Positions 877 to 5,566 of a stretch of DNA of 64,000 nucleotides are shown one piece after another. The first letter of the stretch is position 1; the number at the start of each line of letters is the position of its first letter. The translations under genes and the position numbers were made by a program. Under the pieces are notes generated by a model, which was given only the letters and a program-made list of their open reading frames with translations, ran no database searches and had not been told where the DNA came from. The DNA is from a virus: the IMG/VR virus record IMGVR_UViG_3300021181_000006, positions 1 to 64,000 of that record; one strand, given 5' to 3'.

Positions 877-1389
877 ATGGACAATGATTTACATCAAAAG
901 CCGAAAGGCAAGTACATGAATCCAGCACGTGCCCGTTCTCGTCTAGAGAAACTCAAGAAAATCTATGATCCGATCCAGGAATCGATGAAGAAGAACCGCG
1001 ATGAAGCGGCTGCTCTCCATGTCCTCAATGACAAGGAATCAGCTTCTCTCTCATCTGTCTCAGAAGACGATGCCGCTATCCGTGAATCTCTCCAAAACGA
1101 GATCGTGGAGCGCTCATCCCGCATCCTCATCTTGGATACGGCCTTCCATGATACCATGACGCAGAATGCCGAACTGATTCGTCGTTTCCATGTGGCAGAA
1201 GTCACGCTTCGTCGCAAGATCTTGGAATATCCCGCCAAACTGCGCAAGCATTTGAACCGTGGTCTCAAAACCGAGACTCGTGGTCCGAAGGACATGTTCA
1301 ATGCCAAGGAAGAGCGTCGTGTTCTGCTCGCTGCAGAAGCAGAAAAGACGCCACAACAGCAGTTAGCAGCTGCTTTGTCAGGGACCTAA
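877..1389 (+). CDS. Hypothetical helical protein (170 aa)
   Basis: Long ORF, charged helical composition, coherent codon usage. Confidence 0.7.
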   Translation: MDNDLHQKPKGKYMNPARARSRLEKLKKIYDPIQESMKKNRDEAAALHVLNDKESASLSSVSEDDAAIRESLQNEIVERSSRILILDTAFHDTMTQNAELIRRFHVAEVTLRRKILEYPAKLRKHLNRGLKTETRGPKDMFNAKEERRVLLAAEAEKTPQQQLAAALSGT

Positions 1390-1393
1390 GTTT

Positions 1394-1594
1394 CCTATGC
1401 AAGCGGACAACCCGAATGCATAGTAGCCTCTCCATCTGATCCGTGTGGAGTTGTAGCATGCTGCTGAATCCCGTGGTATGATTAGGACTTGCAATCCGTC
1501 ATATTCGGACCTATTCGGCAGAAACGGACACGTTTTCAGGTGACCACTATAGCGCTTCACCACTTGTTTACTCAAGTTCTTGGCGTTATAGTGG
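1394..1594 (+). ncRNA. Unidentified structured RNA with 3' pseudoknot, directly upstream of tmRNA
   Basis: Helices 1395-1401/1417-1423, 1430-1434/1446-1450, 1461-1469/1513-1521, 1477-1481/1499-1503, 1522-1526/1531-1535, 1539-1543/1557-1561; loop 1544-1554 pairs with 1584-1594 (11 bp). Confidence 0.55.
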
Positions 1595-1609
1595 TTATCG
1601 TTCTTTCAT

Positions 1610-1985
1610 GGGCCTGATTAGCTTCGACGGGAATTGTGAAATAAGAGTGAGCCGTGTCGTAGAGCTTGTGGCTACGTAAAAAACAAGCAAAAAATGTAAA
1701 TGACGATTCCGTCACTTACGCATCTGCCCGTCTCGCTGCCTAACCGCAGCCTGGCTCACAGGTGTCCAATCTGCAACATACGGGTGCTTCTACCGTTGCA
1801 GATCATCAGAAGATCGTCGGCCTAGGAACTGGAAAACCTAGGGACTAAATTCCATCTCGGTCCAGCACAATGGGTACCGTAAACTCGAAATGCTAGGTGA
1901 TCATTCCAAATAATGATATATACACGGTAGAGCACACTATAGATCGATTCTCGGACCTGGGTTGCGAAACCCAGCAGGTCCACCA
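1610..1985 (+). ncRNA. ssrA: tmRNA (transfer-messenger RNA)
   Basis: 5' GGGCCTG pairs with 3' CAGGTCC-ACCA including G3-U wobble; GATTAGCTTCGACGGG D-like region; T-arm CTGGG/CCCAG; internal tag frame ending LAA-stop. Confidence 0.95.
1696..1743 (+). other. tmRNA tag reading frame VNDDSVTYASARLAA* (resume codon could instead be GCA at 1687)
   Basis: Translation of 1696-1743; ND start and LAA end typical of proteolysis tags. Confidence 0.8.
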
Positions 1986-2027
1986 TTTGTAATTTCAGTG
2001 GCACGTGTGTACCTACTAGCAATAGTA

Positions 2028-2164
2028 GGAGTTCCTCTGATGAGTCTGCTTAAACTCCAGACGAAACCGATCAGTGAAGACGAGTGTTCTCTTCACATAG
2101 GTGGGCGTACTATTACAGAATTAACACACTCTGTACCTGTAACCTGCCTGATTGGTAAGGAAAT
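2028..2164 (+). ncRNA. Type I hammerhead ribozyme with 73-nt insertion in stem III; predicted cleavage after A2157
   Basis: CTGATGA 2037-2043; stem II GTCTG/CAGAC; GAAA 2063-2066; stem III ACCGATCAG 2066-2074 / CTGATTGGT 2148-2156; GUA triplet; stem I TTCCT 2032-2036 / AGGAA 2158-2162. Confidence 0.85.
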
Positions 2165-3250
2165 GCTTGGATCAGACATCGGAAGTCGGTGCCAGGCCTA
2201 GACCACGTGCTTACCGTGTGTTCTAGTAGTCTATTGTCAGTCCAACCATAGGGAGCACTAGCGGTGACAGATGATTCCTGTTCGTTGCTGCTCTCAGCCC
2301 TCATAGACGGCAAATAAGTTTTTAATGACCAGAACTGAATGGTCAGAGCGAACTAACGGTAAGACGTATTTTTGAAGGTATTTTGGAGGACCACGGAGCC
2401 ATCCAAAGGCCCTCCTAGAGAGGTAGCCTAACTCTGTGGTGAAGACCACGACTCGGGGTGCAAAGCCAGGGATACCTTCTTTCTTTCAAACCATCAACCA
2501 AAGGAAGACCATGTTCAGAAAAGGACTCTACGACATAGAATTCGTTTTTGGTCTTGTGAAAGCTCCAGAAGAGAGAGTATTGGTTGATGGAGATATCATG
2601 AATACCAAATCGTTACGCATGCGTACTTTTGCTTATAAAGGCATTCATTGCGTGAATTGTGAAAGGTATGGCAGGGGTTTCGTTAAAGAGAAACATCACG
2701 CTTCGGATCAGACGTATCATTTTGCCCTCTATCACTGGTATAACGATGATAGAGAGCCTATGATACTGATGACAAAAGATCATATACTACCCATTTCAAA
2801 AGGTGGTCGTGATTTTCTTGGTAACATGCAACCCATGTGTGCGGTGTGTAATTTTACCAAAGCAGGAGATCCTCTTCCTGTTGGTGTGAAGTTCACTCCC
2901 AATGAACTATTTCTTCGTATTCCGCTATCCAGTCCCACTATGACCTCTTAGGTGAGCTGCGTTCATGCTCTTTGCAGCATGAAGCCAGTAGCGAGATCCT
3001 AAGTGCGTCGGGATGATAGACGTGAAGAATGGATAGACAGACACTCAGGTAAGTCCAAGCGCGCTCTTGCTAAGGGTGAAATGCTGAGCTGAATGGGGTG
3101 CGAGTCGCAATGCCCGACACTGTTCGGGGATAGGAGCACGCGCCATGCAAAGATTCCTGCATCGTTAGCCGGACTTAGAGCCGGCCACTCTGATTGACTT
3201 CAGATATACATGAAGCAATCTATAGAGCAATAATATACACGAAAGAGTCC
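2158..3250 (+). ncRNA. Candidate large structured ncRNA (about 650 nt excluding the HNH ORF)
   Basis: ORF-poor and helix-dense flanks at 2158-2510 and 2952-3250; pseudoknot 2210-2217/2356-2363; long-range helices 2414-2424/2943-2952 and 3050-3056/3171-3177. Confidence 0.55.
2511..2951 (+). CDS. HNH endonuclease (McrA-like, Zn-binding), 146 aa from ATG 2511
   Basis: CVNC...TKDHILPISKGG...NMQPMCAVCNFTK motif; AAGGAAG RBS at 2501-2507. Confidence 0.88.
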   Translation: MFRKGLYDIEFVFGLVKAPEERVLVDGDIMNTKSLRMRTFAYKGIHCVNCERYGRGFVKEKHHASDQTYHFALYHWYNDDREPMILMTKDHILPISKGGRDFLGNMQPMCAVCNFTKAGDPLPVGVKFTPNELFLRIPLSSPTMTS

Positions 3251-3287
3251 ATGCAGTATCCTACGAAAGTAGGGTACTGCATTTTTT
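3251..3287 (+). terminator. Rho-independent terminator
   Basis: ATGCAGTATCCTAC-GAAA-GTAGGGTACTGCAT followed by a T run. Confidence 0.85.
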
Positions 3288-3299
3288 AGATACCACACC

Positions 3300-3482
3300 A
3301 TGACTGATAAACATACAGTAACCCTCGAATATCAAGTGCAGCAAGCTCGTCTTGTTAAACAATTACGCGCAGAAAACTCTCGATTACGAAACCGACTGAA
3401 AGAGCTATTAGAATATGAACGACAAAGAGATGCCGAAATCGCAGCCAGCGACACAAGTAGTGACCACATCATGCCCTATTGA
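3300..3482 (+). CDS. Small coiled-coil hypothetical protein
   Basis: 60-aa ORF with heptad-like pattern. Confidence 0.5.
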   Translation: MTDKHTVTLEYQVQQARLVKQLRAENSRLRNRLKELLEYERQRDAEIAASDTSSDHIMPY

Positions 3483-3633
3483 GCATGGTGAGTTTAAGGT
3501 CAGTGTCAGTGAAGCTGAAGCATATTTCGAGAAATATGGCTTATATATGATTAATGGAGGTTTGAAGAAAACCACGCCATCAGAATCGGATCATCAATCT
3601 GATGCAGACGATACGCCTGATATAAGTGTATAA
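3415..3633 (+). CDS. Small hypothetical protein
   Basis: 72-aa ORF overlapping the previous one. Confidence 0.4.
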   Translation: MNDKEMPKSQPATQVVTTSCPIEHGEFKVSVSEAEAYFEKYGLYMINGGLKKTTPSESDHQSDADDTPDISV

Positions 3634-5566
3634 AGTGTTCCGCTGGCGTATCGTGTGACTTTTCTGGATGTATGACACCAGCTTTAGAGAGAGTTTCCAT
3701 TTCATGGAAGCTCTCTCTAAAAATGGGATAGAGTAACTCACCTTCACGGTGCAAAATAACATCTCTAGGATCCTCTTCGTCTTGAGGATCAATAAATAAG
3801 ATATTTTTCTCTACTTTGGATTCCATATTCCCGGGTAATGGAGTAAAAATAATCTTATCAAAGATGGTTTTTTTACCTATGCCTCGTAACCATGGGATAA
3901 ATTCTATAGGAGCATTCTCAAACTTACCGACTGAAACGCTGACTGGCATATCACGGTGTTTAGGCCGATAAGCACCTAATCCAAAGTGTGGTACAAAGGT
4001 TCCACGACAATTACTTGACAGGATACCTTCAGCCCAATACGATGATGTCATCGTATGGAGATCATACACATGCCCAGTATAATCGAATCTTTCGATACCA
4101 ATAATTTTCAACGGGACTATCTCGCCGGAATATCCATCCAACAGCTCGCTAATAATTTTGGAATCGGAAAGACAACTGTTCATCGTAAGCTGAGACAGCT
4201 CGGCCTCAAAAAAAGAGGTCTTATCGACAAAAATTCCGTTATCAGCAGATATATTGCTGGCGAGTCTGCTCTTGAGATAGCTCTGTCCATTCGTGTCAAT
4301 AAAATTACTATTTATAAAATCCTTCGTGAGCATGGTGTCCCAAGACGGTCCACTGCTCATGCTAATACTTTGAGAATGCAGAAGTTGAGCAAGGAAGATC
4401 GCCTTCTGCTCACGAATGCTGCCCACGCCGCCGTCAAAGGACAGTCCAGAACGAAAGAGGAACTTATCCAGAGAGCTAAAACGCGACAGGAGCGAAGTGT
4501 CATTGAATCCAAGGGCGAAAGGATTATGCTCGACTGGCTCAGAGAAGCCGGATTGCATTGTACTCCACAACTCGCTATTGGACCGTATAATATCGATGTC
4601 GCCGTTCATGAAAATGCCATCGCCGTGGAAATCTTTGGAGGAAACTTCCATACGGCTGGCGCTCATGCTGCTTTGTTTCGAGAAAGAACTGATTTTCTCC
4701 TGAATTCTGGTTGGTTGGTTATTATTGTCTGGGATATTAATAGATCTTGTCCATTGTCCAGGGCTGCATCCGATTACATCACTGCCCTCACGAAGATCAC
4801 CCGCTCTCATATACCCATGTGGTGTCAAGAGCATGTGATTAACGGTAACGGACAGCCTTCTTCCATCGGCAAGAATCAACTTAACTACAGGGCCTTTGTA
4901 GGAGGCGACAAATCCTTCGACGATATTATGATCACATCCAGCTGATACAATGGTGTCTGGCAAGACACAGTTTGGGTGTGAATCATGGGTGAGTGGGAAG
5001 GTATAAGACAATAGCTTACGAATATCGTGAATAGTCCCATTAAGAACCCGACAAATTGGACTCGTTCTATCATCATGGACCTCCATACGACGGCAAAGTG
5101 TGAGTCCGTCTTCTAAGAATTCTGACAGGGCTGCTTTCGCATAAATATTCATCGCAGCAGTACGAGCTACAGTGCGGTTATGTCCAAGAACCTGTTTTAC
5201 CGACTGGCCAGTGCGAAGACGGTCTTTAATGTAATCAGATTCTCTAGGACGCGCATTTAACTCCTGGAGCATACCATCGAGATCTTTCTCGTAATCGTAT
5301 GAACCAATACGTAGTTCTGAGGTCTTTATGAGACCTAAGAATCCCTGTGCCCAGTGTCTTCCAGCCATGGCTGCAGCACGCACCAGAGGCAGCACTGAGC
5401 TACGCTTCAACTCCCCGCCTGCCTCAGCAATACCCTTGGAAGCCGCCAGGATCGATTTGATCTCTGCAGGGTGTACTCCACTGGTCAGTGTACGAGTAAG
5501 TGCGTCCACGGGCTTCCTAGAATCCCAGGATCGGAGTCTTGAAGTCTTCGGTATCAGGCGCTTCAC
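3551..5566 (-). CDS. MuF/SPP1 gp7-like head morphogenesis protein containing an intein
   Basis: DDRTSPICRVLNG...HPN|CRGTF motif reconstituted after intein removal (351 aa spliced). Confidence 0.85.
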   Translation of the reverse strand: MKRLIPKTSRLRSWDSRKPVDALTRTLTSGVHPAEIKSILAASKGIAEAGGELKRSSVLPLVRAAAMAGRHWAQGFLGLIKTSELRIGSYDYEKDLDGMLQELNARPRESDYIKDRLRTGQSVKQVLGHNRTVARTAAMNIYAKAALSEFLEDGLTLCRRMEVHDDRTSPICRVLNGTIHDIRKLLSYTFPLTHDSHPNCVLPDTIVSAGCDHNIVEGFVASYKGPVVKLILADGRRLSVTVNHMLLTPHGYMRAGDLREGSDVIGCSPGQWTRSINIPDNNNQPTRIQEKISSFSKQSSMSASRMEVSSKDFHGDGIFMNGDIDIIRSNSELWSTMQSGFSEPVEHNPFALGFNDTSLLSRFSSLDKFLFRSGLSFDGGVGSIREQKAIFLAQLLHSQSISMSSGPSWDTMLTKDFINSNFIDTNGQSYLKSRLASNISADNGIFVDKTSFFEAELSQLTMNSCLSDSKIISELLDGYSGEIVPLKIIGIERFDYTGHVYDLHTMTSSYWAEGILSSNCRGTFVPHFGLGAYRPKHRDMPVSVSVGKFENAPIEFIPWLRGIGKKTIFDKIIFTPLPGNMESKVEKNILFIDPQDEEDPRDVILHREGELLYPIFRESFHEMETLSKAGVIHPEKSHDTPAEHFIHLYQAYRLHQIDDPILMAWFSSNLH
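4015..4060 (+). promoter_or_regulatory. Sigma70-type promoter, palindromic operator and RBS for the antisense endonuclease
   Basis: TTGACA 4015-4020, 17-nt spacer, TACGAT 4038-4043; ATACGATGA-TG-TCATCGTAT 4037-4056; GGAG 4057-4060, 9 nt before ATG 4070. Confidence 0.75.
4070..4945 (+). CDS. HTH-repeat + Vsr/DUF559-like endonuclease nested antisense within the intein (291 aa)
   Basis: Two HTH motifs (ISIQQLANNFGIGKTTVHRKL; SALEIALSIRVNKITIYKIL); PYNIDVA...AVEIFGGNFH...LLNSGWLVIIVWD nuclease motif. Confidence 0.88.
   Translation: MPSIIESFDTNNFQRDYLAGISIQQLANNFGIGKTTVHRKLRQLGLKKRGLIDKNSVISRYIAGESALEIALSIRVNKITIYKILREHGVPRRSTAHANTLRMQKLSKEDRLLLTNAAHAAVKGQSRTKEELIQRAKTRQERSVIESKGERIMLDWLREAGLHCTPQLAIGPYNIDVAVHENAIAVEIFGGNFHTAGAHAALFRERTDFLLNSGWLVIIVWDINRSCPLSRAASDYITALTKITRSHIPMWCQEHVINGNGQPSSIGKNQLNYRAFVGGDKSFDDIMITSS

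Follow-up and report, generated by a model that had tools for sequence, protein, structure and literature searches.

A candidate hammerhead ribozyme between the tmRNA gene and an HNH endonuclease gene of a phage

The tmRNA locus

The first 64 kb (the window) of a phage genome of 184,466 nt, IMG/VR record IMGVR_UViG_3300021181_000006 (completeness estimate 94%), contain a series of coding and non-coding elements on the plus strand: an orphan gene (orf170), a folded stretch of 220 nt, a gene for transfer-messenger RNA (tmRNA), a hammerhead ribozyme motif, a leader of 353 nt, a gene for an HNH endonuclease, a domain of 299 nt, and an intrinsic terminator (Table 1). The subject of this analysis is the stretch from the predicted hammerhead cut to the terminator (2158-3287), in which the HNH gene lies between two non-coding flanks. 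An earlier note on this DNA had read the two flanks as a single ornate RNA of about 650 nt with the HNH gene looped out of one hairpin.

The tmRNA gene is complete (GC content 0.49). It matches the covariance model RF00023, has a tRNA-like domain, and encodes a tag that ends in LAA followed by a stop codon. ARAGORN finds the gene only with the option -ps and misses it under default settings. The locus has one close relative (L005), which is 98.9% identical to the window; eight of the 64 differences between them fall in the tmRNA. Those located in the tag frame (1728 and 1731) are both synonymous, which suggests that the tag is translated.

A terminator scan of the plus strand between 600 and 3700 returned sites only at 721 and 3251. 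The latter is the strong terminator that the earlier note had identified, and both its stem of 14 bp and its T run were recovered. The scan found no terminator-like sites on the plus strand between 738 and 3251. The absence of terminators from the tmRNA up to 3251 renders a single, processed transcription unit plausible. To this extent, the self-processing RNA operon proposed previously finds support, with the hammerhead as its processing element, whereas the large RNA that was to be one of its products does not. A promoter-like motif (ATATACA) showed no enrichment.

Table 1. Features of the locus between orf170 and the terminator. Positions refer to the window.
Feature	Position	Strand	Basis or remark
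170-aa orphan gene (orf170)	877-1389	+	
Strongly folded 220-nt stretch between orf170 and tmRNA	1390-1609	+	
Phage tmRNA, tag ...NDDSVTYASARLAA, CCA end 1983-1985	1610-1985	+	RF00023, 101.4 bits, E 1.8e-38
Type I hammerhead motif	2032-2162	+	sequence reading; descriptor scan
Stem I, 5 bp, open (UUCCU / AGGAA)	2032-2036 / 2158-2162	+	
Core, CUGAUGA	2037-2043	+	
Stem II, 5 bp (GUCUG / CAGAC)	2044-2048 / 2058-2062	+	
Core, GAA	2063-2065	+	
Stem III, 9 bp (ACCGAUCAG / CUGAUUGGU)	2066-2074 / 2148-2156	+	
Structured 73-nt insert in stem III	2075-2147	+	
Predicted self-cleavage site, GUA/A, H17 = A2157	between 2157 and 2158	+	motif geometry
353-nt non-coding leader, GC 0.49	2158-2510	+	no credible ORF
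Leader hairpin	2165-2197	+	MFE
Leader multi-branched domain, closed by 2210-2217/2356-2363	2205-2368	+	MFE
Shine-Dalgarno-like AAGGAAG, upstream of ATG 2511	2501-2507	+	sequence reading
Free-standing HNH endonuclease gene, 146 aa, GC 0.41, single copy	2511-2951	+	Pfam, PHROG
299-nt non-coding 3′ domain, GC 0.505, closed by 2967-2973/3242-3248, five inner arms	2952-3250	+	
Intrinsic terminator, 14-bp stem, GAAA loop, T6	3251-3287	+	terminator scan; inverted repeat I2
ORF, open reading frame; MFE, minimum free energy structure.

Hammerhead motif

The coordinates of the predicted cut, which had already been proposed from the sequence, are correct. A descriptor scan of both strands of the 184-kb genome detected this motif as the only hammerhead, and the same scan returned none from 40 shuffled genomes. 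The core nucleotides are all those of a hammerhead, including the closing pair of stem III (A2066-U2156), and stems I (open), II, and III (both closed) are each in register with the core. On the basis of its sequence, the motif is accepted here as a hammerhead with predicted cleavage activity. Hammerhead cleavage leaves a 2′,3′-cyclic phosphate on the upstream RNA and a 5′-hydroxyl group on the downstream RNA, which in this case would begin with A2158.

In IMG/VR, 27 viral contigs (L051-L077), many of them 4-10 kb long, contain type I hammerheads whose stem II (GUCUG/CAGAC) is identical to that of the motif. These hammerheads are directly followed by assorted phage ORFs, and their cleavage sites are typically located 40-100 nt 5′ of the ribosome-binding site (RBS) and ORF. 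About 17 of the 27 hammerheads are near-identical copies of a single ribozyme. The most solid, and mildly novel, element of the locus under study is its long-insert hammerhead between a tmRNA and a nuclease gene.

HNH endonuclease gene

The product of the HNH gene contains an HNH domain that exceeds the Pfam cut-offs of both PF01844 (E 1.7e-6, 28.5 bits, cut-off 21.4) and PF14279 (HNH_5; E 1.2e-6, 28.8 bits, cut-off 27.5), and the protein matches HNH families of PHROG down to E 5e-14. There is no paralog in the genome. The family is very large (5018 related clusters at E ≤ 1e-3), and the best match outside the protein's own cluster shares about 50% identity.

The five nearest homologs leave no gap to the protein genes on either side; their start and stop codons abut or overlap those of the neighbors. 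This arrangement indicates that the flanks do not travel with the HNH family. None of the five shares the flanks described here, an outcome that counts against the giant RNA. Because the homologs lack such flanks, the HNH gene looks like an intruder at the locus. The part of the earlier note that concerned an invading HNH gene is thus retained, whereas its view of the invaded host as one giant RNA is not.

A perfect helix of 11 bp (2491-2501/2580-2590, inverted repeat I6) encloses the RBS of the HNH gene together with its start codon. In addition, a UCUUCCU motif late in the ORF (2873-2879) is complementary to the RBS (2502-2508). These pairings could gate translation of the HNH gene, but the local fold around the HNH start is not significant (z -0.7). 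A tract of co-conversion by homing (2082-3457, with two differences from L005) was considered and rejected because the background is too uneven, with only two differences in the 513 nt of orf170.

Folding of the non-coding flanks

With GC contents of 0.49-0.50, the flanks differ from the genome (0.42) and from the enclosed HNH ORF (0.41) and fall into the top 5% of windows; their composition resembles that of the neighboring RNA genes, yet orf170 also has a GC content of 0.50. Neither flank contains a credible small ORF. The fold of the 3′ flank is well defined (z -2.84, with 1 of 200 shuffled sequences as good; z -2.9 in a second test), and its ensemble diversity (0.082 per nt vs 0.247) is lower than that of all 40 shuffled sequences. 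The 5′ flank as a whole has a marginal fold (z -1.6 to -2.3), and only its core (2200-2372) reaches z -3.4, so that the description of the flanks as helix-dense fits the 3′ flank only. The HNH ORF and orf170 lack a comparable definition of their folds. Since some coding windows of the genome reach z -5, folding energy alone proves little.

The flanks are independent folding units, each of which closes on its own, and mutual pairing is not required. This bears directly on the proposal of a single RNA of about 650 nt, whose halves would pair across the ORF and loop out the HNH gene at 2414-2424/2943-2952, similar to the ORFs in peripheral loops of group I introns. The size of such an RNA and its position next to a tmRNA would resemble the setting of GOLLD and ROOL (PMC6582537), and a bulged helix of 10 bp that abuts the HNH stop codon does exist at the proposed position. 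When the ORF is deleted in silico, the pair probability of this helix is 0.83, but the value is favored by construction because a deletion at the helix ends creates a local hairpin; when the native 1.13-kb RNA is folded, the helix is missing from the MFE.

All five pairings listed in support of the single RNA are complementary as described, but their occurrence does not exceed chance expectation. A search that tolerated G-U pairs and a single bulge found a helix of 10 bp or more in each of 40 dinucleotide-shuffled pairs of flanks. The number of helices per pair of flanks is 28 in the native sequence versus a mean of 19 in shuffled ones, and 7.5% of the shuffles reach the native count. Relative to separate folding, joining the native flanks gains -6.9 kcal/mol, which is less than the gain of shuffled flanks (-9.8 ± 4.3 kcal/mol); 74 of 100 shuffles gain at least the native energy. 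Pairing between the flanks is therefore at or below the level expected by chance.

Individual helices fare no better. Enforcing 2164-2173/2995-3005, the other cross-flank helix, costs +12.8 kcal/mol relative to the MFE, and the only flank substitution of L005 (3003 G>A) disrupts it. The corresponding costs are +12.9 kcal/mol for 3050-3056/3171-3177 and +10.8 kcal/mol for 3059-3069/3131-3143, with pair probabilities close to 0 in all three cases; all five helices together require +27 kcal/mol. The supposed pseudoknot (2210-2217/2356-2363) proves to be an ordinary nested helix at the base of a 5′ domain, and the 7-mer shared by the flanks (GGGGTGC) is expected by chance, as about six shared 7-mers are to be expected between sequences of 353 and 299 nt. 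Taken with the lack of any match to GOLLD, ROOL, or another large RNA, these results make a single giant RNA improbable.

Searches for RNA families and homologs

Rfam 15 was searched with the entire window at gathering thresholds and, at E ≤ 10, with region 1300-3400 and each flank alone; the flanks were searched in stretches of less than 400 nt, allowing truncated matches. The only families detected in any of these searches were tmRNA and a weak hammerhead. Neither flank matched GOLLD, ROOL, HEARO, group I or group II introns, RNase P, 6S RNA, Y RNA, or any other ribozyme, which rules out these families as far as the models reach and leaves the suspected kinship with GOLLD, ROOL, HEARO, and group I or II introns without a basis. 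The elements GGUAAGUCC and AAGGGUGAAA of the 3′ flank were also considered as RNase P-like, an idea that was dropped because no RNase P model matched at E ≤ 10.

The same searches bear on the possibility that the stretch is a group I or group II intron, or the remnant of one, that carries a homing endonuclease. An HNH ORF within about 650 nt of folded non-coding RNA would fit such an origin, as would the wealth of mobile elements in this phage, which include an intein with a nested nuclease (3551-5566). However, neither Intron_gpI (RF00028) nor any group II or other intron model matched the region or its single flanks at E ≤ 10, a reverse transcriptase is absent, and there is no interrupted gene: the tmRNA is complete, and removal of the stretch restores neither an ORF nor an RNA gene. 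The intron reading is close to refuted.

Even less probable is an RNA-guided or RNA-bound HNH nuclease that uses the flanks as scaffold or guide RNA in the manner of HEARO and IscB, or the HNH-RNA complex that had been suggested earlier. It would explain the physical adjacency of the HNH gene and a folded RNA, but nothing else speaks for it. Systems of this kind combine a RuvC and HNH protein of about 400 aa or more with an adjacent HEARO RNA, whereas the protein encoded here is 146 aa long, contains no domain other than HNH, and has neither RuvC nor PLMP parts. HEARO models found no match, and the closest homologs of the protein have no adjacent RNA.

Sequence-based searches of the region (blastn, nhmmer, and tblastx) returned nothing from the INPHARED phages, 20 relatives defined by their RNA polymerase, the whole records G001-G005, and six tmRNA loci from relatives. 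When 283 kb of relatives were searched with a covariance model built on 2975-3145, no match had an E value below 0.26. Exact patterns retrieved only chance matches from IMG/VR, from the metagenomes of JGI, and from the genomes in GTDB; one of the metagenome matches is a true RNase P RNA. The sole relative with an orf170 homolog (99% identity) is L005, which differs from the window at only two positions within 2158-3287. Because L005 is nearly identical and also carries the HNH gene, it provides neither a covariation signal nor an ORF-less allele. Neither covarying flanks nor an ORF-less allele, both of which would have lent weight to the giant RNA, were found among the related phages.

The N-terminal 500 aa of the RNA polymerase ORF retrieved 20 distant phages (30-36% identity), whose genomes mostly comprise 110-195 kb. 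A tmRNA was present in 6 of the 10 whole records searched, where the elements next downstream are a terminator, tRNAs, RtcB, or other protein genes; neither a hammerhead nor flank-like sequences were found in these distant relatives.

Proposed processing of the transcript and alternative origins

The results are best reconciled if the self-processing of a tmRNA unit yields 2158-3287 as its downstream product, which would serve mainly as the messenger of the HNH endonuclease, with structured flanks, rather than as one giant RNA. We assign a probability of about 0.5 to this interpretation. Transcription would read through from the tmRNA gene, as the scan predicts no terminator before 3251. The transcript would then fold into the hammerhead, with the 73-nt insert in stem III, and, to judge from the motif, would be cut after A2157. 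The upstream piece would be a tmRNA precursor with a 172-nt trailer and a cyclic-phosphate end, which 3′ exonucleases of the host presumably trim. The downstream RNA of 1.13 kb would carry a 5′-hydroxyl group and consist of the 353-nt leader, the RBS, the ORF for the 146-aa HNH protein, the compact 3′ domain, and the terminator.

The HNH protein is most likely an ordinary, free-standing endonuclease of the homing type, whose gene probably lodged in a non-coding stretch behind a highly conserved and strongly transcribed RNA gene, in the way that such genes settle in the tRNA clusters of phages. Both the 5′-hydroxyl end and the 3′ structure with its terminator may stabilize the nuclease messenger. 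Because the ribozyme would uncouple the two products, insertion of the HNH gene would spare the maturation of the tmRNA.

Several observations weigh against this interpretation. The sole hammerhead match in Rfam (RF00008, 17.6 bits, E 2.5) is a weak, permuted type III alignment far below the gathering threshold of 48.5 bits, although the low score can be explained by the insert in stem III, which breaks the model and illustrates how model-based searches overlook such ribozymes. No hammerhead was found in ten distant relatives. The HNH gene, which is taken to be mobile, is present in both known alleles (window and L005), and the gene order of distant relatives differs, which limits the comparison of presence and absence that homing would call for. 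About 650 nt of transcribed non-coding RNA is a large amount for the surroundings of a small gene, and the fold of the 3′ flank is thermodynamically no less well defined than that of the tmRNA. The nearest HNH genes lack untranslated flanks, so that this non-coding RNA was probably there before the HNH gene was inserted, and the flanks may serve a separate function.

The latter points lead to the possible, though clearly less probable, alternative of one or more pre-existing, lineage-specific genes for stable RNA, headed by the hammerhead and comprising one or two separate folds (2205-2368 and 2967-3248), with the HNH gene inserted later between the domains and a function of the flanks that is unrelated to the nuclease. 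The high GC content of the flanks relative to the genome, the fold of the 3′ flank (z -2.9, diversity below that of 40 of 40 shuffles) and of the 5′ core (z -3.4), and the absence of such flanks from the nearest HNH homologs are in agreement with this origin. Relatives also place structured RNAs behind their tmRNA, either tRNAs or, in L035, a stem-closed RNA of 172 nt. However, a homolog of either flank was found nowhere in the collections searched, no Rfam family matched, coding windows of the genome reach similar or lower z values, the 5′ flank is only marginal, and L005, with 2 differences in 1133 nt, is devoid of a covariation signal.

Tentatively, the stretch from cut to terminator might be traced to a structured RNA gene of an undescribed, lineage-specific family that was headed by the hammerhead, co-transcribed with the tmRNA, freed by the ribozyme, and later invaded by the HNH gene. 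In that case, at least the compact 3′ domain (2967-3248) might have retained an independent role as a stable RNA, possibly within the RNA-repair or translation-rescue setting of the tmRNA.

If the hammerhead is active, the messenger interpretation would make the locus a clear natural case of a ribozyme that uncouples a housekeeping RNA, the tmRNA of a phage, from a selfish nuclease gene on a shared transcript, a role analogous to that of splicing for intron-borne endonucleases. A new giant RNA would matter more, but the claim lacks comparative support here.

Comparison with known systems

Perreault et al. 2011 (PMC3088659) showed that hammerheads cleave the polycistronic RNAs of prophages at intergenic positions. 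The motif in the window shares with these type I hammerheads of phage and prophage operons (Rfam clan RF00163/RF00008) the full core, the three helices, the open stem I, and the intergenic position within one transcript, where cleavage would separate the products. It differs by the 73-nt insert in stem III, by scores under the family cut-offs, by its neighboring genes, which encode a tmRNA and a nuclease of the homing type, and by the distance between cut and start codon, which is 353 nt instead of about 40. Discontinuous hammerheads with a long insert between their strands occur in the 3′ untranslated regions of rodent Clec2 genes. Their core is likewise interrupted by a long insert within one stem, whereas the insert described here comprises 73 nt and is located in stem III of a phage ribozyme.

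The association of a nuclease gene with stable RNAs also has precedents. The tRNA region of phage T4 carries endonuclease genes and is an example of homing genes in the stable-RNA clusters of phages. HNH genes occur inside horizontally moving tRNA clusters, sometimes beside GOLLD (PMC6582537). As in these clusters, a small HNH gene adjoins a conserved RNA gene at the present locus, and further HNH-type ORFs are found in the tRNA region of the phage, but the gene described here lies between unusually long non-coding flanks and is preceded by a ribozyme. The GOLLD clusters (PMC6582537) are also alike in having tRNA-like genes and HNH genes nearby, and the size class of GOLLD (RF01998) and ROOL (RF03087) would match if the flanks were one RNA, but there is neither a covariance-model match at the thresholds tried, nor a homolog, nor evidence for pairing between the flanks.

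In twin-ribozyme introns, the lariat-capping ribozyme (GIR1) lies upstream of the ORF of the homing endonuclease I-DirI. There, too, the cut of a ribozyme produces the 5′ end of the messenger of a homing endonuclease, but GIR1 belongs to another ribozyme class with a different chemistry and resides in a group I intron of an rRNA gene, whereas no intron is present here.

Genome context and side observations

The stretch between orf170 and the tmRNA (1390-1609) is the most strongly folded part of the locus (z -5.85). Its ensemble diversity is 0.054 per nt vs 0.223 and lower than that of all 40 shuffled sequences; Rfam gives only a weak, overlapping match to permuted tmRNA (26.5 bits).

A segment at the end of the 3′ domain (3204-3250; ATATACATGAAGCAATCTATAGAGCAAT, then ATATACACGAAAGAG) resembles the segment just before the T arm of the tmRNA (1918-1948; ATATACACGGTAGAGCACACTATAGATCGAT). 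It could be the remnant of a duplicated 3′ part of the tmRNA or a product of chance. A search for degenerate remnants of tRNA or tmRNA with ARAGORN at lowered thresholds returned spurious calls only.

Among the relatives, the RNA of 172 nt in L035 (1878-2056; genome G005) has a terminal stem of 14 bp and is located between the tmRNA and the gene of an RtcB ligase. It is more stable than all of 200 shuffled sequences (z -2.73), and its place beside RtcB recalls bacterial Y RNA loci. RtcB likewise follows the tmRNA in genome G002; in the genome of the phage itself, no RtcB remnants were found. The permuted-tmRNA model RF04321 matches L036 (5797-5988, minus strand) with 54 bits (cut-off 47), but the match overlaps a one-piece tmRNA that scores 127 bits and looks like a cross-match of the model rather than a two-piece tmRNA.

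The RNA polymerase gene of the phage is located at the other end of the contig and oriented away from the start of the window. It is a single ORF of 2028 aa (L006, 3703-9789; about 178.2-184.3 kb of G000:C1, minus strand), in which a beta-like and a beta′-like domain are fused. Three more HNH-type ORFs (Pfam HNH or HNH_3) are located at 110184-110303, 112263-112379, and 169686-169820 of G000:C1. The first two (at 110.2 and 112.3 kb) lie in a tRNA-rich region, where 13 tRNA genes are dispersed over 96-119 kb with gaps of 0.7-3.7 kb.

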